Notes: generated by a model from the letters alone, not told the origin. DNA of 64,000 bases from a candidate division CPR2 bacterium GW2011_GWC2_39_35 (GCA_000995065.1 LBWX01000002.1:223708-287707); one strand, 5' to 3'. Positions 4,863 through 63,708 are shown, counted from the first letter of the stretch. Numbers and translations are program-made.

Positions 4863-4865
4863 GAA

Positions 4866-4925
4866 GAATAAAGAATCAGGAATTAAGAATAAAGTAAGTC
4901 TTGTTAGATCATAATTCTTTATTCT
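4866..4925. terminator. Imperfect long hairpin between convergent hydA and hypC (bidirectional terminator candidate)
   Basis: agaataaagaat...attctttattctttattct inverted repeats. Confidence 0.45.
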
Positions 4926-5153
4926 TTATTCTGGGCAGTGGCAATGGTCGTGGCTTTTGGAGAGTTCTAATATTTCGAGAGCGTCGGCTTCCGGCATTTT
5001 ATTGACGCCCAAATCTCCGTGAGCCATGATCCAGTCACCGACCTTAAGGTCTTGTATAAGCACAATATTCACTTTAAATAATTGGCCGTCGTGATCGACT
5101 TCGGCAAATTGGCCGTCTAATGTTTTTACTTGAACGGGAGTTGCTAAACACAC
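4926..5153 (-). CDS. hypC: Hydrogenase maturation factor HypC
   Basis: 75 aa beginning MCLATP (the HypC signature is MC(L/I)(A/G)(I/V)P). It is convergent with hydA. Confidence 0.8.
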   Translation of the reverse strand: MCLATPVQVKTLDGQFAEVDHDGQLFKVNIVLIQDLKVGDWIMAHGDLGVNKMPEADALEILELSKSHDHCHCPE

Positions 5154-5229
5154 TATTTTTGTTCCTTGTTATCTAAGGTTTATTATAAACTTTATTTTCA
5201 AAGTCGGCTAGAGAGATGTTTTGTTAGAA

Positions 5230-5278
5230 AGTCAAAACTCAAAATTCAAAAGGCAAAATTGCAGTTCAAAATTAAAAG
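5230..5278. repeat. Dispersed intergenic repeat, family 2 (TCAAAACTCAAAA..GCAAAATTGCAGTTCAAAATTAAAA)
   Basis: Near-identical copies at 16470-16520, 18451-18503 and 53041-53092. Confidence 0.7.
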
Positions 5279-5397
5279 GTATTCTTACCAAAGATAAGCG
5301 CCGGGGTGAGGGCGAAATTCAAATTGAAAAAAGTGACTTTTTCGGGTATAATCATGAAGTCAAAAAAGTTTTGTCTGTTTATTGTTTTCTGTTTTAT

Positions 5398-5473
5398 AGG
5401 CCCATAGCTCAGGGGTTAGAGCACCGTTCTTATAAAGCGGGGGTCGCGGGTTCAAATCCCGCTGGGCCTACCA
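5398..5473 (+). tRNA. tRNA with anticodon TAT (Ile, AUA-decoding), CCA encoded
   Basis: Manual cloverleaf: acceptor AGGCCCA/TGGGCCT, D-stem GCTC/GAGC, anticodon stem CCGTT/AGCGG (one G-U pair), loop CTTATAA, T-arm GCGGG-TTCAAAT-CCCGC, discriminator A then CCA. Confidence 0.7.
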
Positions 5474-11103: not shown

Positions 11104-11273
11104 GGTTTAAGTATATACAAAAATTAGGCTTACGGCTAGGGAGATTCTTATTGAAAAACTCTATTTTTCATGCTAGAATATTCAAGTCAGAAAAGAGTCA
11201 GTGATCAAGGATCAGAGAAAGAGGCTAATTCGATATTTTTGTTCATTGCTCATTGTTTTTTGTTCCCTGACGT

Positions 11274-13674: not shown

Positions 13675-13721
13675 GTTTAGTCATTGCGAGGAGTCCGGCG
13701 ACGTGGCAATCTTGCTTCGCT

Positions 13722-16461: not shown

Positions 16462-16469
16462 AATATGAT

Positions 16470-16520
16470 TTCAAAGTTCAAAACTCAAAATTCAAAGTTT
16501 CAGTTCAAAATTAAAAATTA
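16470..16520. repeat. Dispersed intergenic repeat, family 2
   Basis: ttcaaaactcaaaattcaaagtttcagttcaaaattaaaa; matches the copy at 5230. Confidence 0.7.
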
Positions 16521-16633
16521 AGCACTAAGTAGCAACTCATTTGTGCGCGGAAAAATTTTGAATTTTGTGAATGATTATAAAAAAGCGAATATTTTTGCTT
16601 CAAAAAAGACACGAATTACTATATAATATACCG

Positions 16634-18430: not shown

Positions 18431-18450
18431 GCTAATTGGTTCATGACTAA

Positions 18451-18503
18451 TTCAAAATGCAAAACTCAAAAGGCAAAATTACAGTTTAAAGGTTAAAATT
18501 GAA
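18451..18503. repeat. Dispersed intergenic repeat, family 2
   Basis: ttcaaaatgcaaaactcaaaaggcaaaattacagtttaaaggttaaaa. Confidence 0.65.
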
Positions 18504-18669
18504 AGATTTTCTAAAAAGGGTTTTTTTGTTTGAGATCGACAGCTGTCGGTGAAGAAGCAATATAATTGATTGCTTAGTTAAGAGTCGAATCTAATTAAAA
18601 TAAGGCCTCGGAGAAAAGTTTAGGTAAGCGTTTAATCACTTAACTAAAATCTAATCTTTAGCCTTATTG

Positions 18670-19650: not shown

Positions 19651-19686
19651 TTTTAAGCTGTGGCTTTGACATTTGAGTTTTGACCT

Positions 19687-21816
19687 TTGAACTTATATAA
19701 TTACCCTATGTTTGAAGTCATAAGTTGGTATTTAGCCATTTTTTTAATTGGCGCCTTGGCAGCGCCTTTAGGTTATTTTCTTTTCGGGCGACTTAAAGAT
19801 TACGGCTACCCATTTTACCGGATAATTGGACTTGGGTTTATTACCTATATTGCCTGGATTTTAGGTAGTCTTAGAATTCTGCCATTTTCTAACTTGAGTA
19901 TTCTAGTGAGTATATTCTTTTTAGCATTATCATCTTTCTTAATTGTTCATTTTAAGAAAATTCACGTAACGAAGGATTTCTTTAGGAAAGCTCTTTTATA
20001 CGAAATTATGTTTATTGTTTTTTGTTTTTTGTTTATTGCTTATAAGCTGTATCACTCCGAAATCAAAGACATCGAAAAGTTTATGGATTTTGCTTTCCTA
20101 AACGCCCTGCTTCGCACTAGCTATTTTCCGCCTCAAGATCCGTGGTTTGCTGGCGAGCCCATCAATTACTATTATTTTGGACATCTGGGGGCGGCGGTTC
20201 TTACCAAGCTAACCCTCATAAAATCCGGAGTTACCTTTAACTTGATGGTGGCTACAAATTATGTTTTTTACGTTACCGGTATTTTTTCCTTAGCTTATAA
20301 TCTTACCAAGAAATATTTTTGGTCATTTCTTGCTATTGTTATAGCGGCTTTTATGGGTAATATCAGTTTTATTATCGGCGTTTTATCGAAAGCTGAATTT
20401 AAGGCTACAAATATTATAAAAGTTCTTTTTCAGGAACAAACTTCGGTTTGGTGGGCGGAGGCGACTCGTATCATCCCCGGCACCATAAACGAGTTTCCTT
20501 TGTATAGCTTTCTTTTAGGTGATCTCCACGCTCATTATCTGGATTTGCCGTTTGTACTAACCGCTATTCTCGCTTTATTTCTAATCCTAAAAGAAGAAAC
20601 TGATCTTATTTTCAAGGTATTTTTAGGAATCCTCTTTAGTATTCTTTTTATAACAAACAGTTGGGATTATTTAATTTACGCCGTTTTTCTAATCCTAGTT
20701 CTTCTATACAGAAATGGCTTCAAAAAAGAAGGGATTTTAGAGTCATTAAAATTTGGATCGATAGTCGGGGGAGTAAGCCTAATTGGCCTGCTGCCGTTTT
20801 ATTTAAATTTTGCACCTGGTTCCCAGGGCATAAAGATAGTGACGGCGCCAAGGACCGAAATAGAACATTTCTTAATTCTTTTTTCACTCCAGATGTTTGT
20901 AGTCGCCATTTTCCTAGGGTTAAGGTTTTATAAAAAAGTGAAGGGGAAGAAAGATTTCATTCTGCCATTTCTTATTATTCTCGGTGTCGGGGCTTTTATT
21001 TTTAAGTCGGCCCAGATTCTGCCATTTTTATTTATCTTGAGTTTTCTTCTTTCTATCCTCATCTTAGAAGACAAAAAGATTAATGAGGAGGCCAAATTTA
21101 ATTATGTTTTAATTGGGATGTCCTTTTTTATAATTTTATTTTGCGAGGTTTTTTATCTGAAGGACATTTACGGGATTGATTTTCAGCGAGCTAACACCAT
21201 CTTCAAGCTCTATTATGAGCTTTGGATTTATCTGTCCCTTAGCGTGGTTTGGGTAGCTTACTATCTATGGGAGAAAAAGGAAAAGATAAATTATGTGTTT
21301 TTCCCCGTGGCTTTTATTTTATTATTAGCTTCGATCTATTATCTTCCTAATAGCGTTAAGGTTTCGGCGGATGGATTTCAAAAAAAATTAGGACTTGATG
21401 GCACTAAATACATCGAAAATAAATACCCTTATGATTATATGGCGATAGAATGGCTTAATAAAAGTGTAAAAGGCAGCAAGATTATTGCGGAAAAGCCTGG
21501 CAATAGTTATACCGATGATTCTAGGATATCAAGCTATACCGGCCTCGCTACTCCTTTGGGATGGCTGGGTCACGAATGGGGCTGGCACGGCTCTGCGGAC
21601 GGACTTGTTCCAAGAAGAGATGATGTGGCCAAATTGTATCAAACGAATGACGAAAAAGAAGCTTGGGAAATCATCGATCGATACAAAATTGATTATATTT
21701 ATATGGGCGAACTGGAAAGAAAAGATTTGGCCATAAACCCGAACTCACCCATAAATAAGCTGGGAGAGACGGTTTATAAGAATAAGAAAGTGGAAATAAT
21801 AAAAGTAAAGCGATGA
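19687..21816 (+). CDS. DUF2298 / Chlor_Arch_YYY-family polytopic membrane protein (putative GT-C-like glycosyltransferase)
   Basis: About 700 aa with many transmembrane segments, a conserved NYYYFGH motif, and a C-terminal soluble domain. Confidence 0.65.
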   Translation: MNLYNYPMFEVISWYLAIFLIGALAAPLGYFLFGRLKDYGYPFYRIIGLGFITYIAWILGSLRILPFSNLSILVSIFFLALSSFLIVHFKKIHVTKDFFRKALLYEIMFIVFCFLFIAYKLYHSEIKDIEKFMDFAFLNALLRTSYFPPQDPWFAGEPINYYYFGHLGAAVLTKLTLIKSGVTFNLMVATNYVFYVTGIFSLAYNLTKKYFWSFLAIVIAAFMGNISFIIGVLSKAEFKATNIIKVLFQEQTSVWWAEATRIIPGTINEFPLYSFLLGDLHAHYLDLPFVLTAILALFLILKEETDLIFKVFLGILFSILFITNSWDYLIYAVFLILVLLYRNGFKKEGILESLKFGSIVGGVSLIGLLPFYLNFAPGSQGIKIVTAPRTEIEHFLILFSLQMFVVAIFLGLRFYKKVKGKKDFILPFLIILGVGAFIFKSAQILPFLFILSFLLSILILEDKKINEEAKFNYVLIGMSFFIILFCEVFYLKDIYGIDFQRANTIFKLYYELWIYLSLSVVWVAYYLWEKKEKINYVFFPVAFILLLASIYYLPNSVKVSADGFQKKLGLDGTKYIENKYPYDYMAIEWLNKSVKGSKIIAEKPGNSYTDDSRISSYTGLATPLGWLGHEWGWHGSADGLVPRRDDVAKLYQTNDEKEAWEIIDRYKIDYIYMGELERKDLAINPNSPINKLGETVYKNKKVEIIKVKR

Positions 21817-21879: not shown

Positions 21880-22040
21880 ACAAGATGTCAAAATCCACAT
21901 TACAAATGTCAAATAAAATATCTTCGAGTCCGAGCGGCCCCAGAGCCGAAGGCCTAATGCCAAATGCATAAATTTTGACATTAAGTCATTTGTTATTCAT
22001 TTGATATTTGGGCTTTGACATTTGGATTTAATAGTATAAT
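21880..22040. repeat. Dispersed intergenic repeat, family 1 (CAAATGTCAAA / TTTGACATTTG words, long imperfect palindrome)
   Basis: Shares tgtcaaaatccaNattacaaat with 29927-29948. Inverted TTTGACATT words lie downstream. Confidence 0.7.
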
Positions 22041-22068
22041 CAAAAATTAATCTAGGATTAACGAAAAT

Positions 22069-22854
22069 ATGACCATCTTTCATGCAATAATATTAGGAGC
22101 CATCCAAGGTATTACCGAATTACTGCCGATCTCATCTTCGGCTCATTTACTTTTAATACCTAATTTTTTTGGCTGGCCAGATTTGGGTTTGGAGTTTGGG
22201 GCGGCGCTTCATCTTGGAACTTTTCTGGCTATTGCAATTTATTTTAGACAAGATCTTTCTAGATATATAAAAGGCTTTTTAAAAAGCCTAAAAAATAAAA
22301 AAGCTCAAAGTGTTGACGAGAAATTGGCTTGGTATTTGATCTTAAGCAGTGTCCCGGCAGCTTTTTTCGGGCTAATCTTAGAAGATTTGGCCGAAAAAGC
22401 TTTTAGGGCGCCAATTATAACGGCTAGCACTCTCGTTCTGGGAGCGGCTTTTTTGTGGTACGCTGATCATCACGTAAAGCTCGAAAAAAAGCTCGAAAAG
22501 ATTACTTTTAGAGACAGTCTTATAATTGGCGCAAGTCAGGCGATCGCACTTGTGCCGGGGTTTTCTCGCTCCGGAGTGACTATTAGCTTTGGCAGGATTC
22601 TGGGCTTGAGTCGGGAAGGAGCTGCTAGATTTTCTTTTCTACTGTCGGCGCCCATTACCTTTGGGGCGTCGTTATTTGAGCTTAGAAAAATTGATCATAT
22701 GGGCCCTATTTTTTTGTTTGGCATTTTAAGCGCTTTGATATTTGGCTTTTTAGCCATCAAATATCTACTTACATATGTTCAAAAAAGCAATTATAATGTT
22801 TTTGTTTATTACAGAATCGGATTAGCAATATTGGTGCTATTGGTCTTACTTTAG
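22069..22854 (+). CDS. uppP: Undecaprenyl-diphosphatase UppP (BacA)
   Basis: ILGAIQGITELLPISSSAHL and the downstream PGxSRSG motif. Confidence 0.9.
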   Translation: MTIFHAIILGAIQGITELLPISSSAHLLLIPNFFGWPDLGLEFGAALHLGTFLAIAIYFRQDLSRYIKGFLKSLKNKKAQSVDEKLAWYLILSSVPAAFFGLILEDLAEKAFRAPIITASTLVLGAAFLWYADHHVKLEKKLEKITFRDSLIIGASQAIALVPGFSRSGVTISFGRILGLSREGAARFSFLLSAPITFGASLFELRKIDHMGPIFLFGILSALIFGFLAIKYLLTYVQKSNYNVFVYYRIGLAILVLLVLL

Positions 22855-23040
22855 AGTAATCAAGTGAATTAGAAATCTTAATAAATCAAAAGATTTAGAA
22901 TGTCTAATTTCTAATTTACCTAATTGACGTAATAAAAATCCCAATGACTAATGACCAATATACAAAGAAATATTTTAGACATTTATGAATTGGGATTTGA
23001 TTAGAAATTAGTAATCAGAGCAATTAGAAATTTAACTCAT
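22855..23040. repeat. Intergenic word-repeat region (TTAGAAAT / ATTTCTAA words, direct and inverted)
   Basis: aattagaaat...atttctaattt...gattagaaattag...aattagaaattt. Confidence 0.5.
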
Positions 23041-23041
23041 C

Positions 23042-23653
23042 ATGGAGCATCTTCTTTCTTACATAACCAATATAGTTACCGGAGCCATTGAGCATATGGG
23101 TTATTTTGGTGTGGCCTTTCTTATGGCCTTAGAAAGCGCCTGCATTCCGGTGCCCTCGGAGCTTATTATGCCATATGCCGGATTTCTGGTTTCTAAGGGT
23201 AGTTTTGGGTTTTGGCAGATTGTTTTCTGGGGTACGGTTGGTCAAACATTCGGATCAATAGTTACCTATTGGATAGGAGCTACTGAGGGTCGGATTCTCT
23301 TAGAAAAATATGGTAAGTACGTGCTTATAAAAAAGAGCCATATTGAGCATGCTGATAAATGGTTTGATAAGTTTGGGCCAAGAGTGGTGTTTTTTGGACG
23401 GATGGTACCGGTAATTAGAACTTTTATTTCGTTACCCGCCGGACTTTCTGAAATGTCTTTTTCGAAGTTCGTCCTATATTCGGTTTTAGGTATTATTCCT
23501 TGGACGATTTTTCTTGGCTACCTGGGCGTTTATCTGGGGGATAATTGGAATTCGCTTAAAGTGTATTTCCACGGTGCTGATGCTATTGTGTTTGGGGCTA
23601 TAATTGGGGGGGCAGGCTACCTTATCTATAAGAACCTGTCTCGCAAAGCGTAA
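23042..23653 (+). CDS. DedA-family membrane protein
   Basis: VTT/SNARE-associated domain motifs ESACIPVPSE and FGRMVPVIRTFISLPAG. Confidence 0.8.
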   Translation: MEHLLSYITNIVTGAIEHMGYFGVAFLMALESACIPVPSELIMPYAGFLVSKGSFGFWQIVFWGTVGQTFGSIVTYWIGATEGRILLEKYGKYVLIKKSHIEHADKWFDKFGPRVVFFGRMVPVIRTFISLPAGLSEMSFSKFVLYSVLGIIPWTIFLGYLGVYLGDNWNSLKVYFHGADAIVFGAIIGGAGYLIYKNLSRKA

Positions 23654-23672
23654 GTCGGGCGGAGAAAATGAA

Positions 23673-24302
23673 ATGAATTTAGACTATTTTATCCAAATTA
23701 TCGGGGGGTATATCGAAACTTATGGTTACCTCGCTGTTTTTTTGTTAGCGCTTTTAGAGAATTCAATTTTCTTGGGCCTTGTTATTCCCGGTGAAACTTT
23801 TGTCATTTTAGCCGGTTTTTATGCCGCTCAAGGAAGATTAAGCTTAACGCTTGTCATCTTCCTCGCACTTCTGGGTGGAATTTTGGGCGGGCAGCTTGGA
23901 TATCTTTTGGGTCGTGAGGGCGAGAAAAGGCTGCTTTACAAATATAAAGACCATCTAAATATTAACGAAAAGTACAAAGCCGTTAAAAAGTTTATGAAAA
24001 TGCACGGCAATAAAACGATTTTTTTTGCTCGTTTTACAGCATTCCTTAGAGCCATTGCGCCATTTGTGGCCGGAACTTTAAAAATGCCTTATCTTAAGTT
24101 TACTTTTTGGGATGTTTTAGGGGCGTTCGTTTGGTCGATTACTATTCCCATTCTTGGGTATTATTTCGGCCAAAATTATAAAGTGCTGCATCAATATTTG
24201 GGAGATGTCGGGGTGATTTTAATTGTTGTTCTAGTTATACTAGTTTGGATTAATTTAAGAAGAAAGGCAGTCGATGAAGATTTCGAAAGAAATTCTAAAT
24301 AA
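23673..24302 (+). CDS. DedA-family membrane protein (second, tandem paralog)
   Basis: LENSIFLGLVIPGE and FFARFTAFLRAIAPFVAG. Start placed at the in-frame Met MNLDYF. Confidence 0.8.
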   Translation: MNLDYFIQIIGGYIETYGYLAVFLLALLENSIFLGLVIPGETFVILAGFYAAQGRLSLTLVIFLALLGGILGGQLGYLLGREGEKRLLYKYKDHLNINEKYKAVKKFMKMHGNKTIFFARFTAFLRAIAPFVAGTLKMPYLKFTFWDVLGAFVWSITIPILGYYFGQNYKVLHQYLGDVGVILIVVLVILVWINLRRKAVDEDFERNSK

Positions 24303-25533
24303 TGGTGCGACTTTAGTTCTGGCTCCCGTCGAAGGAGTTAAATCGACTTCGATATTTTATTTTATTAAATCAGGTTCCAGAAAAGAAAACGAGAAAAATA
24401 ACGGCATCGCTCATTTTATCGAGCACATGATGTTTAAGGGAACTACAAAAAGACCGACGGCCCTAGATATTTCTCAGGAGATCGATAGCATCGGCGCTTA
24501 TTTTAACGCTTTTACAGATAGAGAAAACACGGCCTATTATGTAAAAACAGCCGGGGAGCATCTGGGAAAAGCCTTAGACGTTTTATCGGATATGGTCTTA
24601 AGCTCTACGTTTGACGGGTCTGAAATTGAGAAAGAAAAAGGAGTCATCGTGGAAGAGATTCGAATGTATAAGGATAATCCATCTTGGCATATTGGAGACA
24701 TCTACGAAAGCCTTATTTATCAAAATTCGACTTTAGGACTTCCGATAGCCGGAGAGGAGAATACAGTAACTTCTTTTAATCGCCAAACATTCCTGGATTT
24801 TTACGGGGCAAACTATGGTGCCGAGAACATCATTCTCATACTGGTCGGAAACTTAGAAAACGAAAAGGGGAAGGCAAAAGAATTTTTAAATAAGTTTAGG
24901 GCCGGTACGGGCACTAGGGAAAATAATCCGGTGCCGCTACAGGAAAAACCGCGTTTAATTTTAGAAAGGCGAGATGTTCAGCAGGGGCAGTTTCATCTTG
25001 GAGTACCGGGATACAGCTTTACTCATCCGGATAAGTTCTCGCTGCGTTTAATGTCTATCATCTTGGGAGGAAATATGAGCTCGAGGCTTTTTTCCGAGGT
25101 CAGGGAAAAGAGAGGTCTTGCTTATTCCATCCATACGACCACAGAAGGCCTAAGCGACACCGGACATGTAACGACTTTGGCCGGCGTAGAACGATCTAAA
25201 ATATATGATGCATTAAAACTCATTCTCGAGGAGTACCAAAGAATCGGTGATGATGCAACCGAGGAAGAACTTCAGAGAGCCAAAGATTATTATAAGGGTT
25301 CGTTTGTGATTAGCCTGGAAGACACCAGTCGGATTGCCACGTTTTTGGCGTCCCAAATCTTTTATCAGGGCGACGCGCTTTCTATCGAAGAAATACTTGA
25401 AAAGATAGAAGAAGTGAAGCTCGGGGACGTAAAAAGAGTGTCTAAAGATATCTTTAAAAAAGAAAAACTCAATTTAGCCGTAATTGGACCCTATGAAAAT
25501 CGGGAAAAATTTGATAAAATACTTGAGATATAG
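24274..25533 (+). CDS. M16-family zinc peptidase (pitrilysin-like)
   Basis: Inverted zinc motif HFIEHMMFKGT with a downstream Glu. Confidence 0.8.
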   Translation: MKISKEILNNGATLVLAPVEGVKSTSIFYFIKSGSRKENEKNNGIAHFIEHMMFKGTTKRPTALDISQEIDSIGAYFNAFTDRENTAYYVKTAGEHLGKALDVLSDMVLSSTFDGSEIEKEKGVIVEEIRMYKDNPSWHIGDIYESLIYQNSTLGLPIAGEENTVTSFNRQTFLDFYGANYGAENIILILVGNLENEKGKAKEFLNKFRAGTGTRENNPVPLQEKPRLILERRDVQQGQFHLGVPGYSFTHPDKFSLRLMSIILGGNMSSRLFSEVREKRGLAYSIHTTTEGLSDTGHVTTLAGVERSKIYDALKLILEEYQRIGDDATEEELQRAKDYYKGSFVISLEDTSRIATFLASQIFYQGDALSIEEILEKIEEVKLGDVKRVSKDIFKKEKLNLAVIGPYENREKFDKILEI

Positions 25534-25653
25534 TTCAAAACTCAAAACTCAAAATTATTGAGTTCGTTTAGAAATGAGGGTTAAGGAAGAGGCATTGCCA
25601 GCTTCGACAATGGCAATTTTTACAATTTAATTTAACGAAAGGATAAATAAGGA

Positions 25654-26247
25654 ATGATTCAAGAGAGAACTTTTATTGCCATTAAGGCAGAAGCTATTCA
25701 GAGACACTTAATCGGAGAAGTAATTTCCAGATTCGAGCGTCGTGGTTTAAAACTGGTTGGTATGAAGATGATTGTGGCTACCAAAGATATTGTTGGCAAA
25801 CACTATCCGGATAGTGACGATTGGTATATTCCAACCGGAACCAAGGCTTGGGAAGGTTACAAAAAAAGAGGCGTTGAAATAAAAGAAACTCCAAAAGAAT
25901 TAGGAGTTAAAATCAGAGAGCAACTCATGGATTACTTTGTTGACCGGCCGCTTATTACCATGGTTTGGGAAGGGCCTCACGCTGTCCAGTTAGGCCGAAA
26001 AACTGTTGGAGTTACCAATCCTTTAGAAGCAGCTCCCGGAACCATCAGAGGCGATTTTTCCGTTGATTCTTATGAGTTAGCCGATGGCTTAGGAAGAGTC
26101 GTCCAGACATTGGTGCATGCTTCCGGATCGACAGAAGAAGCGGAAGACGAAATCAAACTTTGGTTTAAGCCGGAAGAATTAATCGATTATGATATGATTA
26201 CCGGCCGTCTTGTTACCGGCAAGGATTGGGGAAAAGTCAAGAAATAG
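25654..26247 (+). CDS. ndk: Nucleoside diphosphate kinase with a ~50-aa insertion
   Basis: ERTFIAIK start, the GEVISRFERRGLKLVGMK region and the active-site histidine in HASGSTEEAEDEIKLWF. It is 197 aa against about 140 for typical Ndk. Confidence 0.7.
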   Translation: MIQERTFIAIKAEAIQRHLIGEVISRFERRGLKLVGMKMIVATKDIVGKHYPDSDDWYIPTGTKAWEGYKKRGVEIKETPKELGVKIREQLMDYFVDRPLITMVWEGPHAVQLGRKTVGVTNPLEAAPGTIRGDFSVDSYELADGLGRVVQTLVHASGSTEEAEDEIKLWFKPEELIDYDMITGRLVTGKDWGKVKK

Positions 26248-26344
26248 ATCAAAAATCAAAGCTCAAAGATCAAAGATCAAGGATGCAGATAAGATTTTAG
26301 GAATTCATTTTTGATCCTTTATCTTTAATCTTTGAGCTTTCGAT
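26248..26344. repeat. Long imperfect palindrome of ATCAAAG words immediately upstream of tRNA-Arg
   Basis: atcaaagctcaaagatcaaagatcaagg ... gatcctttatctttaatctttgagctttcgat. Confidence 0.55.
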
Positions 26345-26421
26345 GCCCCCGTAGCTCAGTCGGATAGAGCGAGGCACTCCTAACGCCTAGGCCAGAGGTT
26401 CGATTCCTCTCGGGGGCACCA
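26345..26421 (+). tRNA. tRNA-Arg(CCT), CCA encoded
   Basis: Acceptor GCCCCCG/CGGGGGC, loop CTCCTAA, T-arm AGAGG-TTCGATT-CCTCT, A31.C39. Confidence 0.8.
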
Positions 26422-26587
26422 TTTAAAAAATAAAATCTCAAAGCTCAAAGATCAAACATTCGGACAATCTTAATATCGACGGTTGATGTGTTGAGGATTA
26501 TGATATTAACACGTGGGACTTAAAGCTTTGGAGAGAGAATCTAAATCTAGCGAAAAGTTAGGCATTACCTAATATTTCAAATTTAAA

Positions 26588-26878
26588 CTAATTCGATGAT
26601 CCATAAATTTCTTTAACTTTCTCTAAGAAATGATCAGACGCTTTAAGGAGAACTTTATTATCAATGCCTTCTAGCTCTAAAAGGGAAAGAGTAAGCAAGT
26701 AGATATCGGCTACTTCTTCCTTAAAATGACCTGGTCTATCCTCATTCTCTTTTAACCTGGTTAGCTTGATTAAATGCTTGCCGATCTCTTCTAAGACATG
26801 GTAAAATTTTCCTTTTTCGTCATGATGGCTTCCATATAATTCCAATATTTCGCTAACATCCTGTTTGATTTTATCCAA
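26588..26878 (-). CDS. MazG-like nucleotide pyrophosphohydrolase (small, all-alpha)
   Basis: EExxE...EExxD pattern (EEIGKHLIKL ... EEVADIYLLTL). Confidence 0.55.
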   Translation of the reverse strand: MDKIKQDVSEILELYGSHHDEKGKFYHVLEEIGKHLIKLTRLKENEDRPGHFKEEVADIYLLTLSLLELEGIDNKVLLKASDHFLEKVKEIYGSSN

Positions 26879-26980
26879 ATAAAGCTCCTATCTTATTTTT
26901 AAATATTATATTCTAAATTCGACGCTTAACAAACTGAAATTTTGCCTTTTCCCTTTTGCATTTTGAGTTATAATATATTT

Positions 26981-27502
26981 ATGCAGTTATCAGTCGAGTT
27001 AAAACCGGGCGAAGAGGAGATCCAAAATATCGAGTGCAGTCTTTACGCTGAGAGATCGTGGTCTATTTACGGTTTGCCATTTTTTACCCTTTTTGGCATC
27101 ATAGGTGTTTTTAATTCGAGATCTTATGTGGTTCTTTTGTCTTTTGTCTTTTTGGTGATTCTTTGGAGTTGGGGCCTTTACCGCTGGCTCTTGTGGTACT
27201 TTACAAATTATATTCTTACCAACCAGAGATTTATTGTAATCGATCAACTTGGAATATTTAAAAAAGAGGTAAAGGAGCTTAGCCTCGATAGGATTTTAGA
27301 TATCACTTATGACCAGCATGGGATGGCGGCCAACATGGCTCATTATGGCGATCTACATATCATTGGAATTGGGCTGACGCTAGATATCTATGACGTCAAG
27401 CATCCAGCCAAAGTAAGGGATATGATCTTGGACGCCAGGCCCAAGGGAAGCAAACTTACAACAAAAGATGTTGTTAATCTCTTAAAAACTAACAAACCGT
27501 AA
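26981..27502 (+). CDS. Membrane protein with bacterial PH (bPH_2/YdbT-like) domain
   Basis: Two transmembrane helices followed by the ILTNQRFIVIDQ ... DRILDITYDQ region. Start set at an internal Met because the upstream ORF extension runs through a promoter-like AT-rich region. Confidence 0.5.
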   Translation: MQLSVELKPGEEEIQNIECSLYAERSWSIYGLPFFTLFGIIGVFNSRSYVVLLSFVFLVILWSWGLYRWLLWYFTNYILTNQRFIVIDQLGIFKKEVKELSLDRILDITYDQHGMAANMAHYGDLHIIGIGLTLDIYDVKHPAKVRDMILDARPKGSKLTTKDVVNLLKTNKP

Positions 27503-27559
27503 AATTGTTTTTTTGTAATAATTGGGTTATTATATATTTGTAAGGAGGAACTGACTAAA

Positions 27560-28486
27560 ATGGGTAAAATATCAAACCTTTCTAAGGTTATAAATTTTGT
27601 AAAAAAGAAAGTTTTTTTGTATTCGCTTAGCGGCTTTTTAGCTTTAGTTGTCGCTTTAATTATTATTTTCGGGATCGGGATTTATAAATATGGCTGGAAC
27701 AATGCTGCTGCCAAAGTGGCGACAAGGATTGTGCCTTACCCGGCAATTATTGTAAATGGCGACTCGGTTACGGTTGCTGACTATCAAAATCGTCTCGATG
27801 CTTTAAAAAATTATCAAAAAGAATACAAAAAAGTTGATTTTAATTCCGAGGATGGTAAAAAAGTTTTAGCTGATATCAAAAGTCAAATTACCGATCAAAT
27901 TAAGGAAGATTTGATTATTTCTGACTACGCTTTAAAAAATAAGATGAGTGTGGGTGATTGGGAAGTAGACGCCGAATATACAAGATTGGTTGATGCAAAC
28001 GGTGGCGAAGAAAATTTAAAAACTGTTCTTTTAAAGTATTATGGCTGGAGTACCGATGAATTTAAGGGCCAGTTAAAAGCCAAGATGTTAAGACAAAAGG
28101 TTGCTGAAAAAGTGACAGGGGATGATGTTTTAAACAAGGAAGCAAAAACCAAGGCCGAACAAGTTCTTGCGGAAGTAAAAAACGGCGGTGATTTTGCCGA
28201 GCTGGCTAAAAAATATAGCCAGGATACTTCGGCCGCCGAGGGTGGTGATTTAGGTTTCTTTGGAAAAGGGAAAATGGTTAAGGAATTTGAAGATGCCGCT
28301 TTTGCTCTAAAGAAAGATGAAGTTTCGGGAGTTGTAAAAACTGTTTACGGGTACCACATCATCAAAGTAACGGATGTAAAAAAGGATGAAGTTAAGGCAA
28401 GCCATATTCTAATTAAAGGTAAAAGCTTTCAGGATTGGCTAAACGAACAGATAAAGGCTGCTAAAGTTAAGAGCTACTTGAAGTAG
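27560..28486 (+). CDS. PpiC-type peptidyl-prolyl cis-trans isomerase (parvulin; PrsA/SurA-like), membrane-anchored
   Basis: GGDLGFFGKGKMVKEFEDAAFALKKDEVSGVVKTVYGYHIIKV. Confidence 0.85.
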   Translation: MGKISNLSKVINFVKKKVFLYSLSGFLALVVALIIIFGIGIYKYGWNNAAAKVATRIVPYPAIIVNGDSVTVADYQNRLDALKNYQKEYKKVDFNSEDGKKVLADIKSQITDQIKEDLIISDYALKNKMSVGDWEVDAEYTRLVDANGGEENLKTVLLKYYGWSTDEFKGQLKAKMLRQKVAEKVTGDDVLNKEAKTKAEQVLAEVKNGGDFAELAKKYSQDTSAAEGGDLGFFGKGKMVKEFEDAAFALKKDEVSGVVKTVYGYHIIKVTDVKKDEVKASHILIKGKSFQDWLNEQIKAAKVKSYLK

Positions 28487-28513
28487 TTTCTTGAAAATCA
28501 AATGCAAAAAGCC

Positions 28514-28541
28514 AGCCACAGGAGAGTTTCTGTGGCTTTTT
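28514..28541 (+). terminator. Rho-independent terminator
   Basis: AGCCACAG-gagagtttc-CTGTGGCT followed by TTTT. Confidence 0.7.
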
Positions 28542-28544
28542 AAT

Positions 28545-28660
28545 TCCAAATGTCAAAGCTCAAATGTCAACTCAAATCCTAATTCCAAATGTCAAAAATT
28601 TAAGCATTAATTCATTTGACATTCATTTGTAATTTGGATTTTGGCATTTGTCATTTTTGC
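28545..28660. repeat. Dispersed intergenic repeat, family 1
   Basis: Three direct CAAATGTCAA words followed by inverted TTGACATTCATTTG and GCATTTGTCATTTTTG. Confidence 0.7.
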
Positions 28661-28681
28661 CTGATTGAATTTTTAGCGTAA

Positions 28682-29917
28682 ATGGAATATAATTATTCGG
28701 ATATGAAGACAGAGTTAATCTTACCCGCAGGAGACTTATATAAAGCCAAAATTGCTTTTCTGTATGGTGCGGATGCATGTTATGGCGGCTTAGCGAAATA
28801 TTCGCTTCGGAAAGCCGAAGTGGATTTCGATTTTGATACCTTAAAAGAAGCGATTCGCTATGCCCATTCATTCGGCAAAAAATTTTTTGTCACGTTTAAT
28901 ATTTTTGCCCACAATTATAATCTCGAAAAAATCGAAGAGGATATCAAAAAAGTGGCAGAGTTTAAACCGGATGCCATTATTGCTTCAGATCCGGGTATTA
29001 TTCAATTTGTAAGAGAAAACAGCGACATTCCAGTTCATCTGAGTACTCAGGCCAACACAACAAATTGGCAGTCCGTTAAATTTTGGCAGGACTTAGGAAT
29101 AAAGCGAATTGTACTCGCAAGAGAACTAGCTTTAAAGGAGATTCAGGAAATTCACAACAAAGTGCCGGACGTCGAACTTGAGGTTTTCGTCCATGGCGCC
29201 ATGTGTATCTCGTATTCTGGTAGATGTCTTCTTTCTGCAGTCATGACGGGTCGGGAAGCGAATCAGGGCGATTGCGCCCAGCCATGCCGCTGGCTTTATA
29301 AAGGCCAAATAGAAGAGAAGATGCGTCCCGGGGATTTTTTTCCGGTTAGAGAAGACGAAAACGGCACTTATATCTTTAATTCTAAAGATTTAAGGCTAAT
29401 CGAACATCTGCCGGAGCTTATTAAAGCCGGTGTTACTGGTTTTAAGGTGGAAGGAAGGAACAAGAGCGAGTATTATGTTGCAGTGATTGCCAGGGCTTAT
29501 AAAAAAGCGTTGGAGGCCTTTAAGGCAGGCAAATTTTTAGATTGTTTAGAGGAATTAAGGGCTGAAACCGAAACTATAAATTATCGGGATTACACAACCG
29601 GATTTTTATTTGGTGAAGCTAAAAAAGGTGAAGTGTATCCGGATCGAGTGCAGATTCGAACCCATAATTTCTTAGGCGTTATCGAAGAATATGATAACGG
29701 GTTTGCCAAAATTCCGATTAGGAACCAATTTAAAATTAGTGACGAGATAGAGATTATCACTCCCAACAAGATCTTTAAAGAGAAAGTAGGGGCAATTCTA
29801 GACCGGAACAAACAAGTAGTAGAGGTTGCCAATCCCGGTGCCAAAGAACACATAGCGTATGTTAAACTATCGAGGGAATATCCGAAGTACGCTATGGTTA
29901 GGAAAAGACTTAAATAA
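28682..29917 (+). CDS. Peptidase U32 family protein
   Basis: ELILPAGDL ... YGADACYGG N-terminal TIM-barrel signature and the conserved Cys-containing CISYSGRCLLS region. Confidence 0.8.
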   Translation: MEYNYSDMKTELILPAGDLYKAKIAFLYGADACYGGLAKYSLRKAEVDFDFDTLKEAIRYAHSFGKKFFVTFNIFAHNYNLEKIEEDIKKVAEFKPDAIIASDPGIIQFVRENSDIPVHLSTQANTTNWQSVKFWQDLGIKRIVLARELALKEIQEIHNKVPDVELEVFVHGAMCISYSGRCLLSAVMTGREANQGDCAQPCRWLYKGQIEEKMRPGDFFPVREDENGTYIFNSKDLRLIEHLPELIKAGVTGFKVEGRNKSEYYVAVIARAYKKALEAFKAGKFLDCLEELRAETETINYRDYTTGFLFGEAKKGEVYPDRVQIRTHNFLGVIEEYDNGFAKIPIRNQFKISDEIEIITPNKIFKEKVGAILDRNKQVVEVANPGAKEHIAYVKLSREYPKYAMVRKRLK

Positions 29918-30045
29918 ATGTCAAATGTCAAAATCCAAATTACAAATCAAATCCTAATGTCAAATTCTTTAATTTCATTTGTTATTAAGTCATTAAACAT
30001 TCATTTGGCATTTGAAATTTGAGCTTTGACATTTTAATGGCTCGT
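29918..30045. repeat. Dispersed intergenic repeat, family 1
   Basis: aaatgtcaaatgtcaaaatccaaattacaaatcaaatcc ... inverted ttgacatt copies. Confidence 0.7.
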
Positions 30046-31213: not shown

Positions 31214-31364
31214 GTGGCATTTTAACTATATGACGAAGGCTAATTTATATAATTGAATCCAGAATATTGTATTTAGAATTTAGAATGGGAATGCAGAATA
31301 TAGGGACAAATAATTCTAAAATTCTTTATTCCTTTTCTAGATGCTAGATTCCAAATTCTATATT

Positions 31365-31610
31365 CTAAGTTTCCTTCCTCACCACAAAAACCTCTTGCAC
31401 GGCGCCATGGCCTTTTAGGAGATATTTTTCTCCAGTCTCGGTTTTATATTGAAATGTTAGTTCGGTTTTGGTAAACGATCTGCTTGGCTTAATGGGTCCC
31501 GGGATTACGCTCACAATATCTTCGGCCTTAGCAAATTCTTGCAGGACTCTTAGTCCGCCATCAATTATACTATGCTCTCTCTTTATTTTATTAAAGCGAT
31601 ATTTCATCAT
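31365..31610 (-). CDS. Short ORF resembling the C-terminal part of RibD_C/DHFR-family reductases (possible gene remnant)
   Basis: 81 aa with weak similarity only. It is flanked by unusually long non-coding sequence. Confidence 0.25.
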   Translation of the reverse strand: MMKYRFNKIKREHSIIDGGLRVLQEFAKAEDIVSVIPGPIKPSRSFTKTELTFQYKTETGEKYLLKGHGAVQEVFVVRKET

Positions 31611-50120: not shown

Positions 50121-50223
50121 TTAATTAGGAAGAAGGAATAATTAAGAAGCAAAAATTCTTCCTTATTACTTTTTCCTGTTTTGAACCTTCATAATATACC
50201 AAAAAAAGGGGGGAATGTAAAGA

Positions 50224-52920: not shown

Positions 52921-53040
52921 CGGCATGCAACGTAAGGTATGTGGAGAGGTTAATCCATCCCCTTAACTTAAGTTAAATTGACAATAAAAAACAAGGCATT
53001 TCACCTCTTAAACATGATTATTTTAACATATATTTGAAGA

Positions 53041-53092
53041 AATTCAAAATTCAAAAATCAAAAGGCAAAATTTCAATGCAAAGTTTAAAATT
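53041..53092. repeat. Dispersed intergenic repeat, family 2
   Basis: aattcaaaattcaaaaatcaaaaggcaaaatttcaatgcaaagtttaaaatt. Confidence 0.65.
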
Positions 53093-53099
53093 TTAGACA

Positions 53100-58937: not shown

Positions 58938-59079
58938 ATAGGTTAATAGGCTAATGGGTGGATGGCTAATAGGTTTGCAAGTTACTAGGTAAAGGGCTTC
59001 ATCTTGGCGTCATCCAGGACCTCCTCATTTTAGAGTTAAGAGTCAAGAAGAAAGAGCAAAGTAAAATTAGGAGCTAAAT

Positions 59080-62136: not shown

Positions 62137-63708
62137 ATGGAAAACAAAACAAATACAATTGAGAAAGTTGACGTTACCCTGAAAGACATCGTAAAGGAAT
62201 CTGAGGGTAAGGTAAAAAAACCGTCTAGGATAAAGCCGCATCATAAAAAAATTGCCGCTTGGATGGTTATTTTAATTGTGGTCTTTTCGCTTCTTATTAT
62301 TGTGGCCGGCGCTATTTATGCTCATCAATCAATTTATGAGAATAAGGTTTATCCGGGAGTTGTTGTTTGGGGTGAGCCGGTTGGCGGTAAAACCGTAAAT
62401 GAAGTCCAGCAGCTAATAACAGACAAGGTTAAAAATTATAAGGTTACTTTAGCTAGCCCAGATCAAACTTATGAGCCAACGGCCGACGAACTTGGACTTG
62501 TGTTTAACATCGAAACTATGGCTCTAAGCGCTTATTCTAAGGGAAGGACGGGATCGTTCACAAATAATATTGTTACCAGAACGAGGCTTTTAGGCATGAA
62601 CATCGAATGGAATCCGGCAAAAAACTTCTTTCGGGCTAAAGAACTTGAGATTTCGCCGAGCTTTACTTTTTATGAAACGAAACTGGATAATTATATTGCA
62701 AAGATTTCCGAGAACCTGACTATTAAGGAAAAAGATTCGGAAGTTAAGGTAAATGGGGGAAGCATAGAGATTGTCCCGGCCGTATACGGACGCCAGGTAG
62801 AGACAGAAGATTTGAGCAAGGATTTAAAGGGTGCTGTTAAGAGACTTCAGTCTAAAATGATCGAGATAAAAACAATATCGGTTAAACCTAAAATTGTTGA
62901 TACGGCTGCTGATAAGGTAGTAAGTGAGGCTCAGGAAATAACTAACCGCCCGGTTGCTCTTACTTATCTTGCTGAGACTTATAAGCCCGACAAAGAAACC
63001 ATTACTTCTTGGGTCGTGTTTGTAAAAGAAGAAAGCTCCGAGAACTATAAATTAGTAGTTGATCCCGCTAAGATGAAAAATTATTTCTCATTTTTGTCAT
63101 CTAAGATTTATGCGGCTCCGGTACATAAGAAAGTAAAAGTCGAAAACGGGGGTGCCCAGACTGTAACTCAGGAAGGGAAGGACGGTATCGCATTAGACGA
63201 AGGCTTGCTTGGCAGACAAATCGCTGATGCATTACCAAAAAGTGAGGCCATCAATATAGCTATTCCGACTTATGCCATAAAATATAAAACTGAATACGAA
63301 AACGTGTTGGTGGCAGATTGGGCTAAATATATTGAGATTAATATTTCTACTCAGACAATGACGGCTTATGAGCAGGGCGGCAAAATTGTCGGCCAGTGGA
63401 AAGTAACCACCGGAGCAAGCTATACCCCCACACCGGTTGGAACATGGCTCATTCATGGAAAAACGGCGGTTACAAGGATGACGGGGGGAACGCCCGGAAT
63501 TGATTATTATGACCTACCGAATGTTCATTGGGTGAGTTGGTTTAAGGGCGGCGGGTACTCTATCCACGAAGCCTATTGGCGAACCAGTTTTGGCGGCATG
63601 GATTATACCTGGAATGGGTCTCACGGGTGCGTTAATTCGCCAATTGATGTGGCCAAATTTATTTACGACTGGGCGCCGGTTGGAACTCCGGTGGTAGTAC
63701 ACTATTAA
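62137..63708 (+). CDS. L,D-transpeptidase family protein (YkuD catalytic domain), membrane-anchored
   Basis: N-terminal transmembrane segment and the C-terminal catalytic SHGCVNSP motif with the upstream His. Confidence 0.8.
   Translation: MENKTNTIEKVDVTLKDIVKESEGKVKKPSRIKPHHKKIAAWMVILIVVFSLLIIVAGAIYAHQSIYENKVYPGVVVWGEPVGGKTVNEVQQLITDKVKNYKVTLASPDQTYEPTADELGLVFNIETMALSAYSKGRTGSFTNNIVTRTRLLGMNIEWNPAKNFFRAKELEISPSFTFYETKLDNYIAKISENLTIKEKDSEVKVNGGSIEIVPAVYGRQVETEDLSKDLKGAVKRLQSKMIEIKTISVKPKIVDTAADKVVSEAQEITNRPVALTYLAETYKPDKETITSWVVFVKEESSENYKLVVDPAKMKNYFSFLSSKIYAAPVHKKVKVENGGAQTVTQEGKDGIALDEGLLGRQIADALPKSEAINIAIPTYAIKYKTEYENVLVADWAKYIEINISTQTMTAYEQGGKIVGQWKVTTGASYTPTPVGTWLIHGKTAVTRMTGGTPGIDYYDLPNVHWVSWFKGGGYSIHEAYWRTSFGGMDYTWNGSHGCVNSPIDVAKFIYDWAPVGTPVVVHY

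Follow-up and report, generated by a model that had tools for sequence, protein, structure and literature searches.

Intergenic spacers of a CPR2 bacterium are decayed seven-base tandem repeats, often followed by an inverted copy

Heptamer arrays and hairpins between genes

The window, the whole stretch of DNA analysed here, comprises 64,000 nt from candidate division CPR2 bacterium GW2011_GWC2_39_35 (GCA_000995065.1 LBWX01000002.1:223708-287707). Its host is an ultra-small bacterium of groundwater. The intergenic DNA of the window, which has a GC content of 35%, contains decayed seven-base tandem repeats, often followed by an inverted copy; where the inverted copy is present, the spacer folds as a long A/T-rich hairpin (Table 1).

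An earlier note on this DNA described spacers built from words of 10-11 nt. The true unit is shorter, a degenerate heptamer. Autocorrelation of the spacers gives a self-identity of 0.5-0.7 at lag 7, against a background of 0.26. A sliding test detects 36 periodic regions in the window at lag 7, as compared to 3-10 at lags 4, 5, 8, 10, 11 and 13; 28 of the 36 are intergenic, while intergenic DNA is 15% of the window. TRF reports a period of 7 or 14 in 34 of 64 rows, and of about 190 distances from one CAAA to the next, taken across 31 elements, 110 equal 7. The CAAA/TTTG core of the heptad is conserved and the other three nucleotides vary. Several unrelated vocabularies lie side by side in this one genome, the words of the window being CAAAWNN, AAGAATA, TAGAATn and AAATAGG. 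Nine arrays overlap or adjoin a 3' end, and five adjoin the 5' end of a tRNA or coding sequence.

Table 1. Heptamer arrays and hairpin spacers of the window
Feature	Position	Strand	Remarks
AAGAATA-word hairpin	4863..4932	+	NiFe-hydrogenase operon end
F2 copy	5228..5285	+	one-armed unit
T-rich heptads GTTTTGT CTGTTTA TTGTTTT CTGTTTT	5368..5398	+	end at tRNA-Ile 5' end
T-rich heptads	11235..11270	+	end 3 nt before tRNA-Met
F2 copy	16468..16521	+	begins 1-8 nt past MurJ stop codon
F2 copy	18450..18510	+	after LepA; 8-nt words precede
F1d	19662..19699	+	T-rich F1 words only (GGCTTTGACATTTGAGTTTTGACCTTTGA)
F1a palindrome	21885..22024	+	arms 21885-21917, 21989-22021
TTAGAAAT-word hairpin spacer	22858..23032	+	spacer 187 nt, z -4.3/-5.4
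(TCAAAAC)x2.9	25534..25564	+	begins at M16 stop codon; small hairpin 25546-25564
ATCAAAG-word hairpin	26248..26343	+	27-nt arms, 93% complementary, z -6.5
L' array	26433..26459	+	3' of tRNA-Arg
F1b palindrome	28545..28660	-	F1c copy in inverted orientation
F1c palindrome	29912..30035	+	arms 29916-29959, 29991-30034
TAGAAT-word hairpin	31250..31370	.	between convergent M24 and DUF2103 genes
AAGAAGG-word inverted array	50127..50183	-	6 nt upstream of tRNA-Asp
F2 copy	53040..53095	+	antisense to neighbouring minus-strand gene
8-nt-period array ATAGGnTA	58938..58990	+	begins at stop codon
Perfect (AAATAGG)x14.3	63707..63806	+	overlaps YkuD stop codon

The elements form a series without break, from a perfect tandem array through one-armed arrays to palindromes. 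At one end stands the AAATAGG array, closed by a single inverted word (TAGGAATctcATTCCTA, 63801-63817). The window and L048 each carry 14 copies of the unit and L050 carries 15, all in short-read assemblies in which copy number is uncertain, and L047 and L049 have an assembly gap or break at this position. The difference between assemblies suggests that slippage is ongoing. The one-armed arrays include the copies of the F2 unit, TTCAAAAyTCAAAAyTCAAAAGGCAAAATTnCAGTTCAAAnTTAAAA; the copy at 18450 occupies a position orthologous to a conserved hairpin of two relatives, L007 and L008. An array similar to that at 58938 lies at 13586-13645, upstream of a canonical terminator (13651-13668). Many one-armed arrays have no fold (z about 0; e.g., 5228, 16468, 18450, 53040 and 58938).

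To many other arrays an inverted copy has been added, giving long A/T-rich imperfect palindromes. Such palindromes had been proposed from inspection, and they are real: the arms measure 44, 33 and 27 nt and are 75%, 73% and 93% complementary, respectively. Seven spacers (4863, 21880, 22855, 26248, 28545, 29912 and 31250) fold far better than their shuffles, with z of -3.2 to -6.8 on the better-folding strand and minimum free energies of approximately -20 to -45 kcal/mol. Folding is about as good on the sense as on the antisense strand, which indicates no G-U asymmetry. The purine-rich arm comes first in 10 of 10 hairpins of the window. At 4863 the stop codon lies inside the first unit, and at 50127 the heptad signal is clear and the fold weak (z -1.3). 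The 26248 hairpin extends from the NDK stop codon to within 1 nt of tRNA-Arg. As this leaves no space for a promoter, the tRNA is necessarily transcribed through the hairpin. Across the tRNA, the L' array is complementary to the right arm of this hairpin and holds an exact 18-nt copy of its left arm (26257-26274 = 26439-26456).

The dispersed F1 family

One vocabulary recurs between spacers. With up to one mismatch, CAAATGTCAAA has 18 matches, as compared to 2.58 +/- 1.44 in dinucleotide shuffles, none of which reached 18; exact AATGTCAAA has 12, with 1.16 expected. Fifteen of the 18 fall within 21885-22024, 28545-28660, 29912-30035 and 19662-19699. The first three of these were recognized in the earlier note and the fourth had been missed. 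The longer shared stretch that it reported is confirmed and reads tgtcaaaatccaCattacaaat at 21886 and tgtcaaaatccaAattacaaat at 29926; F1b and F1c have further exact blocks of 18-19 nt in common, in opposite orientation and swapped between arms. F1 is thus a true dispersed family, with at least four copies within 10 kb of the window. Rather than diverging from one consensus, the copies combine reshuffled words into mosaics.

The copies differ in their surroundings. The F1a loop holds a 33-nt GC-rich insert (21922-21954), and a close copy that differs by a 33-nt insert lies upstream of trigger factor in a metagenome contig, L100. F1b sits between a canonical terminator (28514-28537) and a predicted promoter (28665-28693), the F1c array begins inside the U32 stop codon (TAAATGTCAAATGTC), and F1d overlaps a predicted promoter, TTGAGT-17-TATAAT, at 19673-19701. 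Small-protein genes were considered and rejected, as the reading frames of F1a, F1b and F1c are unlike in both frame and sequence.

The other-word spacers at 22855, 26248 and 31250 do carry direct and inverted arrays, as had been noted. These are local, and TTAGAAAT and ATCAAAG are not dispersed families: neither is enriched across the window (14 matches with 9.3 expected, and 19 with 16.6 expected).

This last result, together with the low GC content of the spacers, is what one would expect if the pattern were an artefact, whether of A/T-rich base composition or of the assembly. That reading has a negligible probability, and the shuffling and lag controls rule it out: dinucleotide shuffles never equal the observed counts or fold energies, and the signal is peculiar to lag 7. 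Moreover, AT-rich control loci lack the signal, and independent assemblies from ENA, NCBI and JGI have identical spacers.

Relatives, origin and possible roles

At two junctions of the window, related loci lack the spacer. Where the window has the 187-nt spacer at 22858, L007 and L008 have an overlapping TAAATG stop/start, and where it has 252 nt at the F1a junction, they have a gap of 6 nt; the BacA-VTT gap in L043 is 1 nt. Comparison of these loci indicates that both spacers were inserted, as a derived state, at junctions where relatives have coupled or nearly contiguous genes. The missing DNA at both junctions exceeds one element, with no exact F1-only empty site among L007, L008 and L043.

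One orthologous hairpin spacer, that of L007 and L008, is identical at 128 of 148 positions (86%), versus 61-65% at 4-fold sites (P = 3e-9), and one arm is identical at 61 of 61 positions although silent sites of the two species are near saturation. The 31250 hairpin aligns in part with its L008 orthologue, including one block conserved at 21 of 22 nt. The L007-L008 identity suggests some constraint on their hairpin spacer.

Spacers of like architecture and other words are found in Candidatus Moranbacteria and on many metagenome contigs, so that heptamer-hairpin spacers occur in other CPR bacteria (Patescibacteria) too. The intergenic lag-7 excess is 0.047 in the window, 0.042 in L008 and 0.076 in the Moranbacteria locus L186, whose neighbouring spacers have a GGTATCA vocabulary in common; in 24 control loci, none with the architecture, it ranges from -0.035 to +0.017. 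In L007/L008 and L188 the two arms stand in the opposite order to the purine-first hairpins of the window.

We assign a probability of roughly 0.6 to the reading that the word palindromes are decayed heptanucleotide arrays of the STRR/LSSR class, made by slippage and fold-back copying. Replication slippage would create the arrays and lengthen them by 7 nt at a time. A second arm would then be copied from a small seed hairpin by fold-back or template switching, a candidate seed being the inverted word that closes the AAATAGG array. Spread to nearby spacers may involve ectopic template switching or recombination, with no transposase. The mosaic sharing of blocks between copies is compatible with the earlier suggestion of recombination hotspots. 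Slippage alone does not account for the coexistence of several word families, for the purine-first order of arms throughout the window, or for the fully identical arm of L007 and L008. It also counts against slippage that the spacers of six near-identical strains show no variation.

Alternatively, F1 and possibly F2 could be MITE- or REP-like mobile elements, non-autonomous and inserted between genes by an enzyme acting in trans. The density of F1 and its close L100 copy, the opposite orientations of F1b and F1c (a marker lies 7:7 in either arm on metagenome contigs), the insertion of spacers between once-coupled genes, and similar elements in other lineages are all consistent with this proposal. 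It is nevertheless doubtful. F1a, F1b and F1c have no target-site duplication or fixed termini, their ends differ, and no single consensus underlies the mosaics. Neither direct scan nor precomputed annotation places a transposase or RAYT among the approximately 45 window proteins covered, and none of 17 viral matches has a heptamer-hairpin context. The continuum from perfect array to palindrome also argues against insertion, and a small heptad vocabulary can explain an 18-mer shared across lineages.

If the slippage-derived arrays have a role at all, it would at most be that of intercistronic RNA hairpins. The arrays may be transcribed together with their flanking genes, and intercistronic or 3' AU hairpins of -20 to -40 kcal/mol could block 3' exonucleases or serve as double-strand processing sites. 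They might also insulate neighbouring genes, and T-rich arms could provide TTGAnn (-35-like) words to downstream promoters.

The earlier note envisaged a system of hairpin-forming spacers acting as terminators, RNA stability elements or recombination hotspots, and proposed to check for a preference for operon 3' ends. Such a system, made of short words, does exist between genes beyond chance; neither the terminator role nor the 3'-end preference was borne out. Arrays occur in 19 of 43 3'-end spacers versus 2 of 8 divergent ones (p = 0.44), so a preference is not demonstrable in the window. The word hairpins score -33 to -77 on the d'Aubenton-Carafa discriminant, as compared to +13.5 and +22.1 for the window's two canonical terminators (28514 and 13651), and a terminator pattern scan did not flag these hairpins. 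The word hairpins are not canonical intrinsic terminators. They could instead be the lineage's factor-independent bidirectional terminators or attenuators, with an A-rich 5' arm and U-rich 3' arm in nested hairpin-plus-U-tract units. Such a function would fit their position after stop codons and at operon ends (e.g., 4863, past the hydrogenase operon), the leading purine-rich arm, the single canonical intergenic terminator within 16-33 kb, and a small AT-rich hairpin of L043 at the orthologous NDK-tRNA spacer. Besides the discriminant, several placements make it unlikely: F1b comes immediately after a canonical terminator, the 26248 hairpin adjoins a tRNA with no promoter space, and L186 hairpins occupy entire stop-to-start gaps within apparent operons. 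L007/L008 and L188 have arms of reverse polarity, and relatives manage without these spacers.

A further possibility, and a rather improbable one, is that the heptads are tandem sites for a putative protein with a 7-nt register, either a single-strand RNA binder of the cold-shock-domain or S1 type or, as with the heptads of omega protein, a DNA-bound ribbon-helix-helix protein. Such a protein would regulate translation, access to promoters or the formation of the hairpin. The strict register with its constant CAAA/TTTG core and three variable nucleotides points this way, as do conservation above neutral (including the 61 identical nt), lineage-specific words common to adjacent spacers such as GGTATCA in L186, and comparable proposals for TAACTGA and Nostoc heptamers. 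The T-rich words (nnCTTTG) may also resemble the reported heptamer preferences of CspB/CspE. Against such sites stand the several unrelated vocabularies of one genome and a window in which the candidate protein was not found. The perfect array of another word, AAATAGG, argues that arrays arise regardless of a fixed motif.

It is conceivable, if improbable, that the A-rich/T-rich palindromes form a Patescibacteria-wide, selectively maintained class with lineage words (CAAAWNN in CPR2, GGTATCA in a Moranbacterium), read in 7-nt steps by a putative nucleic-acid-binding protein, for example one that attaches to the U-rich arm by a cold-shock domain. This reader would then decide whether an intercistronic hairpin forms, and with it read-through, processing or translation of the next gene. 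The palindromes would represent a regulatory layer where classical regulators are very few, not repeat debris.

Comparison with known repeat systems

The statement that no known feature type explains these spacers was too strong, as the arrays are of the same kind as the STRR/LSSR heptamers of cyanobacteria, Beggiatoaceae and others. Other classes fit less well. Integron attC sites, imperfect palindromes that follow a cassette ORF and end in core sites, were rejected, with no RYYYAAC ... GTTRRRY pair on either strand of seven spacers; the genes that flank these spacers are syntenic housekeeping genes. In Rfam, only tRNAs score above the gathering threshold, and at E <= 5 only spurious miRNA-precursor-like matches are added. 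Intrinsic (bidirectional) terminators likewise place past the stop codon a hairpin that is A-rich on its 5' side and U-rich on its 3' side; the stems here are long, AT-rich and mismatched, with large loops, strongly negative scores and canonical terminators nearby.

REP/BIME of enterobacteria, known stabilisers of upstream mRNA, also consist of imperfect palindromes outside genes; they lie in transcribed spacers in either orientation and combine into mosaics. However, REP has a 35-40-nt GC-rich unit, a conserved GTAG head, a RAYT transposase and no 7-nt periodicity. It was rejected here, as the heptads are AT-rich and without a conserved head and the window has no Y1 transposase. MITEs (Correia, ERIC, RUP) are similarly short dispersed palindromes between genes, co-transcribed and sometimes parts of promoters; unlike the F1 copies, they are of fixed length, with inverted repeats conserved at their termini and duplication of the target site.

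The omega protein of pSM19035 binds contiguous 7-bp units, direct and inverted, with one dimer per heptad. This compares in manner of working only: omega heptads form a plasmid promoter/centromere site of one motif, WATCACW, and the window yielded neither such a protein nor such a motif.

Closer relatives are found among heptamer repeats. According to the summary in PMC4679880, heptanucleotides are the commonest class of long SSR, ascribed to polymerase slippage (Mrazek 2007). TAACTGA repeats of marine Beggiatoaceae are likewise intergenic heptamer tandems of patchy phylogenetic distribution, for which S1, Csp or CsrA binding has been proposed; they have one dominant word in 2-6 copies just upstream of start codons, inverted in 1 of 170 (MacGregor 2015, PMC4679880). 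CPR2 arrays differ in being many-worded and 3'-proximal, with inverted arms the rule. As in the STRR of Nostoc PCC 7120, there are head-to-tail 7-nt units, biased to non-coding DNA, many per genome and near gene boundaries; unit number is polymorphic in AAATAGG, on short-read assemblies. The cyanobacterial STRR1-3 words are not present, and the sole match to a published Nostoc heptamer is the F2 word TTCAAAA, identical to that of the TTCAAAA/TTTTGAA repeats (bioRxiv 10.1101/2022.06.06.494920). Unlike STRR, the CPR2 arrays are mostly degenerate, often have an inverted partner array with which they form palindromes of 70-160 nt, adjoin stop rather than start codons, and form dispersed mosaic families in Patescibacteria with genomes of about 1 Mb. 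They are a new form of the heptamer-repeat DNA already known from cyanobacteria.

Heptamer words and the hairpins built from them

The earlier note had described the spacers as built from recurring 10-11-nt words, and a shuffling test of the window shows these to be real and non-random: CAAATGTCAAA, with at most one mismatch, has 18 matches against 2.58 ± 1.44 in shuffles, and AATGTCAAA has 12 against 1.16 expected. The matches of the enriched words sit in four spacers, the three originally recognized and that of F1d, the fourth copy of the dispersed palindrome family F1 (see table). Of the further words that had been proposed, TTAGAAAT and ATCAAAG lack window-wide enrichment; their spacers are local arrays and do not form dispersed families.

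These words are degenerate heptamers. Identity of the sequence with itself at lag 7 is 0.5-0.7 within arrays, compared to 0.26 in coding DNA, and the pooled intergenic DNA of the whole window has a lag-7 peak. In a sliding test of 21 comparisons, lag 7 gives 36 periodic regions, 28 of them intergenic, with intergenic DNA making up 15% of the window. Lags 4, 5, 8, 10, 11 and 13 give 3-7 regions each; lags 6, 9 and 12 give 10-18, nearly all in coding DNA because of codon periodicity. Period 7 or 14 is assigned in 34 of 64 TRF rows, and two arrays have period 8.

The proposal that these spacers form hairpins is also upheld. Against dinucleotide shuffles, the better-folding strand reaches z scores of -3.2 to -6.8 for seven spacers, at 4863, 21880, 22855, 26248, 28545, 29912 and 31250, and the top inverted repeats of the whole window lie at 29916/29991 (44-nt arms), 26258/26314 (27 nt, 93%) and 21885/21989 (33 nt). 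One-armed arrays have z near 0. Sense and antisense strands of the hairpins fold equally, so nothing here points to RNA in particular over DNA; a two-sequence covariation test of the TAGAAT hairpin at 31250 found compensatory changes at 2 of 20 pairs.

The youngest member is the perfect AAATAGG array, which overlaps the YkuD stop codon with its first unit and carries one inverted word, TAGGAATctcATTCCTA, at its 3' end. Other same-species assemblies hold 14 (L048) or 15 (L050) copies, and the site is a run of Ns in L047 and a contig end in L049. The two copy numbers and the breaks, all in short-read assemblies, are taken as evidence for what would be ongoing slippage in 7-nt steps.

Slippage products may also enter coding sequence. 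Heptad-periodic T-rich runs lie within membrane-protein genes (20002-20051 and 27124-27163), and a (GGTATCA)x4 run lies within an apparent LeuRS reading frame of a Moranbacteria MAG (L186, 1890-1934). Arrays of the words ACAGGAA/ACAGTAA/TCAGTTA occur at 61015-61059 and at about 11320-11345 of L008, a CPR2-related genome; on the opposite strand TCAGTTA reads TAACTGA, the Beggiatoaceae heptamer, and AACAGT resembles the cyanobacterial STRR3 word.

Dispersed families and inserted repeats

Positions of repeat families, arrays and accessory-looking genes in the window
Feature	Position	Strand	Remark
F1a	21885-22024	+	
F1b	28545-28660	-	
F1c	29912-30035	+	
F1d	19662-19699	+	
F2 copies	5228, 16468, 18450, 53040		one-armed
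F2, short form	25534		
(AAATAGG)x14.3	63707-63806		perfect
Period-8 arrays	13586, 58938		
GC-richer repeat class	42180-42260, 50280-50375, 13686-13721		also in many L007/L008 spacers
Imm5-like immunity protein	45299-45790		accessory-looking block
HEPN_Apea protein	48494-49879		accessory-looking block

F1 copies have exact blocks of 11-19 nt in common. Over 18 nt, the F1b left arm is the reverse complement of the F1c right arm, and the other arm pair is likewise related over 19 nt; the element is thus asymmetric, and F1b carries it inverted. A close match to F1a lies upstream of the trigger-factor gene on another contig, L100, from the JGI metagenome dataset (Ga0209000) that also yielded L050; the two copies differ mainly by a 33-nt GC-rich insert, which F1a has in its loop. 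In the second family, F2, the unit measures about 48 nt and reads TTCAAAAyTCAAAAyTCAAAAGGCAAAATTnCAGTTCAAAnTTAAAA.

Insertions seem to favour the loops of palindromes. The F1a loop holds a small GC-rich element at 21922-21954 (cttcgagtccgagcg... / ccttcgacaagctc...cgagtc..gagcg), with related copies at 49968-50020, at about 11360-11440 of L008, and in the loop of an F1-like element on an unrelated metagenome contig (L065). A separate, GC-richer repeat class (gtcattcccgc...gcgggaatcc and gtcattgcgag...gtggcaatc) is scattered intergenically in all three CPR2 genomes.

The spacers examined contain neither attC cores nor conserved small ORFs, no transposase occurs among the window proteins scanned, and arrays and hairpins match no Rfam family at gathering or permissive thresholds. 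A reading as DNA uptake sequences was rejected, there being no single, evenly spread conserved word.

Gene context, relatives and possible roles

Nine arrays overlap or adjoin a 3' end, and in several of them the first unit includes the stop codon; five adjoin the 5' end of a tRNA or CDS. In sense orientation, 10 of the 11 arrays beside 3' ends are purine/A-rich and those at 5' ends are mostly T-rich; the purine-rich arm comes first in all ten window hairpins inspected. Arrays are found in 19 of 43 spacers holding a 3' end versus 2 of 8 divergent spacers (p = 0.44), so the suspected preference for operon 3' ends is not demonstrated. They cluster regionally, in 12 of 14 spacers at 16-31 kb and 0 of 13 at 32-50 kb. 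Within the array-free 32-50 kb region falls much of an accessory-looking block (41184-50729) of slightly higher GC that lacks heptad arrays and encodes several proteins without Pfam hits, one of 910 aa, besides the Imm5-like and HEPN_Apea proteins of the table. At 1132-4862, four genes with Fer4, FAD/NAD-binding, Oxidored_q6 and NiFe-hydrogenase large-subunit domains look like a cytoplasmic hydrogenase operon, with the 4863 hairpin at its end.

The leader (26321-26340) and trailer (26440-26459) of tRNA-Arg, 20 nt each and 90% complementary, enclose the tRNA like a processing stalk, and the trailer array contains an 18-nt exact copy of the left arm of the upstream 26248 hairpin. A tRNA-Ile with anticodon UAU, which is uncommon in bacteria, lies at 5398-5473 and is overlapped by a spurious 96-aa ORF (5221-5511). 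Just upstream of tRNA-Pro(GGG), at about 60800-60871, the sequence resembles a degenerate partial copy of that tRNA.

The U32 peptidase encoded at 28682-29917 recurs in identical sequence on Rifle-aquifer assemblies GCA_000995395.1 and GCA_000995385.1 and on ENA ANAN16-1 scaffolds, and a 513-kb Rifle ENA scaffold (ERZ28564304 scaffold_4) equals the window at 100% over 21 kb; the cluster of this peptidase bears the name candidate division CPR2. Spacers did not vary among strains (L001-L006 and L044 versus L007), whose sequences, 99.8-100% identical, are too close to be informative. Among species of the genome collection, CPR2 GW2011_GWC2_39_10 (L007, 76% aa) and bacterium CG2_30_37_16 of the Howlettbacteria group (L008, 75% aa) come nearest; the protein search found no relative between 76% and 100% identity.

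At the BacA-VTT junction, L007 and L008 have a TAAATG stop/start overlap and the relative L043 a 1-nt gap, while the window has a 187-nt hairpin spacer; at the DUF2298-BacA junction, 6 nt in L007 and L008 correspond to a 252-nt hairpin spacer. Both window spacers are therefore derived and were inserted between genes that had been coupled. The NDK-to-tRNA-Arg spacer forms a hairpin in the window, L007 and L008 with different words in each (F1-type in L008), and L043 has a small AT-rich hairpin at this position. Downstream of LepA, the orthologous hairpin spacers of L007 and L008 are identical at 128 of 148 positions (86%, P = 3e-9), including 61 successive bases spanning the right arm, compared to 61-65% at 4-fold sites. 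Some hairpins are thus conserved well above neutral expectation and others replaced outright, and the 86% figure keeps a functional reading possible. In L007, a 132-nt insertion (1778-1909), absent from L008, sits exactly in the loop of this hairpin; with ends CGCGCAT...ATGCGTG, AATAT on both flanks and the gtggcaatc motif of other repeats, it looks MITE-like.

The terminator role suggested earlier is weakened. In our own implementation of the d'Aubenton-Carafa discriminant, word hairpins score -33 to -77, compared to +13.5 and +22.1 for canonical terminators at 28514 and 13651. F1b directly follows a canonical terminator, and hairpins in L186 lie inside apparent operons. The 26248 hairpin ends 1 nt before tRNA-Arg; with no space for a promoter in between, transcription must pass through the hairpin. 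RNase P cleavage at the tRNA 5' end would leave an NDK message ending in this hairpin, which suggests a 3'-protective role. Most plausibly, the elements would act as hairpins between cistrons or at 3' ends and not as canonical terminators; a heptad code read by a protein is possible.

The T-rich arm words contain TTGAnn. In one predicted promoter (19673-19701) the -35 is an array word, and another (28665-28693) begins just past F1b. As a general rule this reading was rejected: 19673 fits and 28665 is adjacent, but F1a (14-nt spacer), F1c and 26248 do not fit. A Rut-site reading of the A-rich arms was also set aside, several vocabularies being G-rich and C-poor.

Distribution, origin and known heptamer repeats

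Intergenic DNA has a lag-7 excess of 0.047 in the window and of 0.042 in L008, compared to -0.035 to +0.017 in 24 non-CPR2 loci; three more distant CPR relatives have an excess of about 0 and no word hairpins. When metagenome contigs were scanned for exact matches to the F1 18-mer CAAAATCCAMATTACAAA, at least 118 stretches were returned. Among the matches listed, about 30 of the 80 loci fetched place this marker within an A-rich CAAAWNN array, a loop and a T-rich NNWTTTG array. In such elements a heptad spacing of 7 dominates, the marker uses either arm equally (7:7), and the position is between co-directional housekeeping genes, e.g. ParB, DnaG, Der, SerRS, Map and Tig. One such contig (L085, 49% GC) is assigned to Candidatus Moranbacteria, judging from the names of its ParB homologues. 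The Moranbacteria MAG GCA_030648835.1 (L186) has the vocabulary GGTATCA/TGATACC, a lag-7 excess of 0.076, and hairpins (z -4.2 and -5.7) that occupy entire stop-to-start gaps; a second Moranbacterium (L188) provides a pyrimidine-first example. The one Minisyncoccota locus examined has no such element, and in viral contigs, a negative control, all 17 marker matches are ordinary coding sequence outside any heptad context. Because the heptad vocabulary is small, the 18-mer may recur in several lineages by convergence rather than transfer.

The elements are STRR-like arrays of degenerate heptamers that have commonly been doubled to give palindromes. Their spread is invasive enough for operons to be split, and constraint acts on some copies at least. 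Most likely, they would arise by slippage together with fold-back or template-switch copying, followed by local spread. Although the genomes of CPR/Patescibacteria are tiny and gene-dense, arrays in this lineage take up as much as about 250 nt per spacer and have even split translationally coupled genes. If the arrays are mutational debris, 7-nt slippage can remodel operon structure in streamlined genomes, and lag 7 is a simple signature for tracing the process. If they are functional, a major radiation of uncultured bacteria has a post-transcriptional or insulating device that had not been described. Their practical consequences are broken short-read assemblies, spurious small ORFs and spurious promoter/terminator calls.

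A literature search turned up no account of comparable arrays or palindromes in CPR bacteria, and the closest parallels come from other groups. In many prokaryotes, heptanucleotide repeats are reported to be the most abundant class of long SSRs, with polymerase slippage as the ascribed cause (Mrazek 2007, as cited in PMC4679880). Beggiatoaceae, cyanobacteria and Bacteroidetes have intergenic TAACTGA repeats, for which binding by Csp, S1 or CsrA has been proposed (PMC4679880). In Nostoc PCC 7120, TTCAAAA/TTTTGAA arrays lie near promoters and start codons, with regulatory effects reported (bioRxiv 10.1101/2022.06.06.494920); the F2 word TTCAAAA is the same heptamer.
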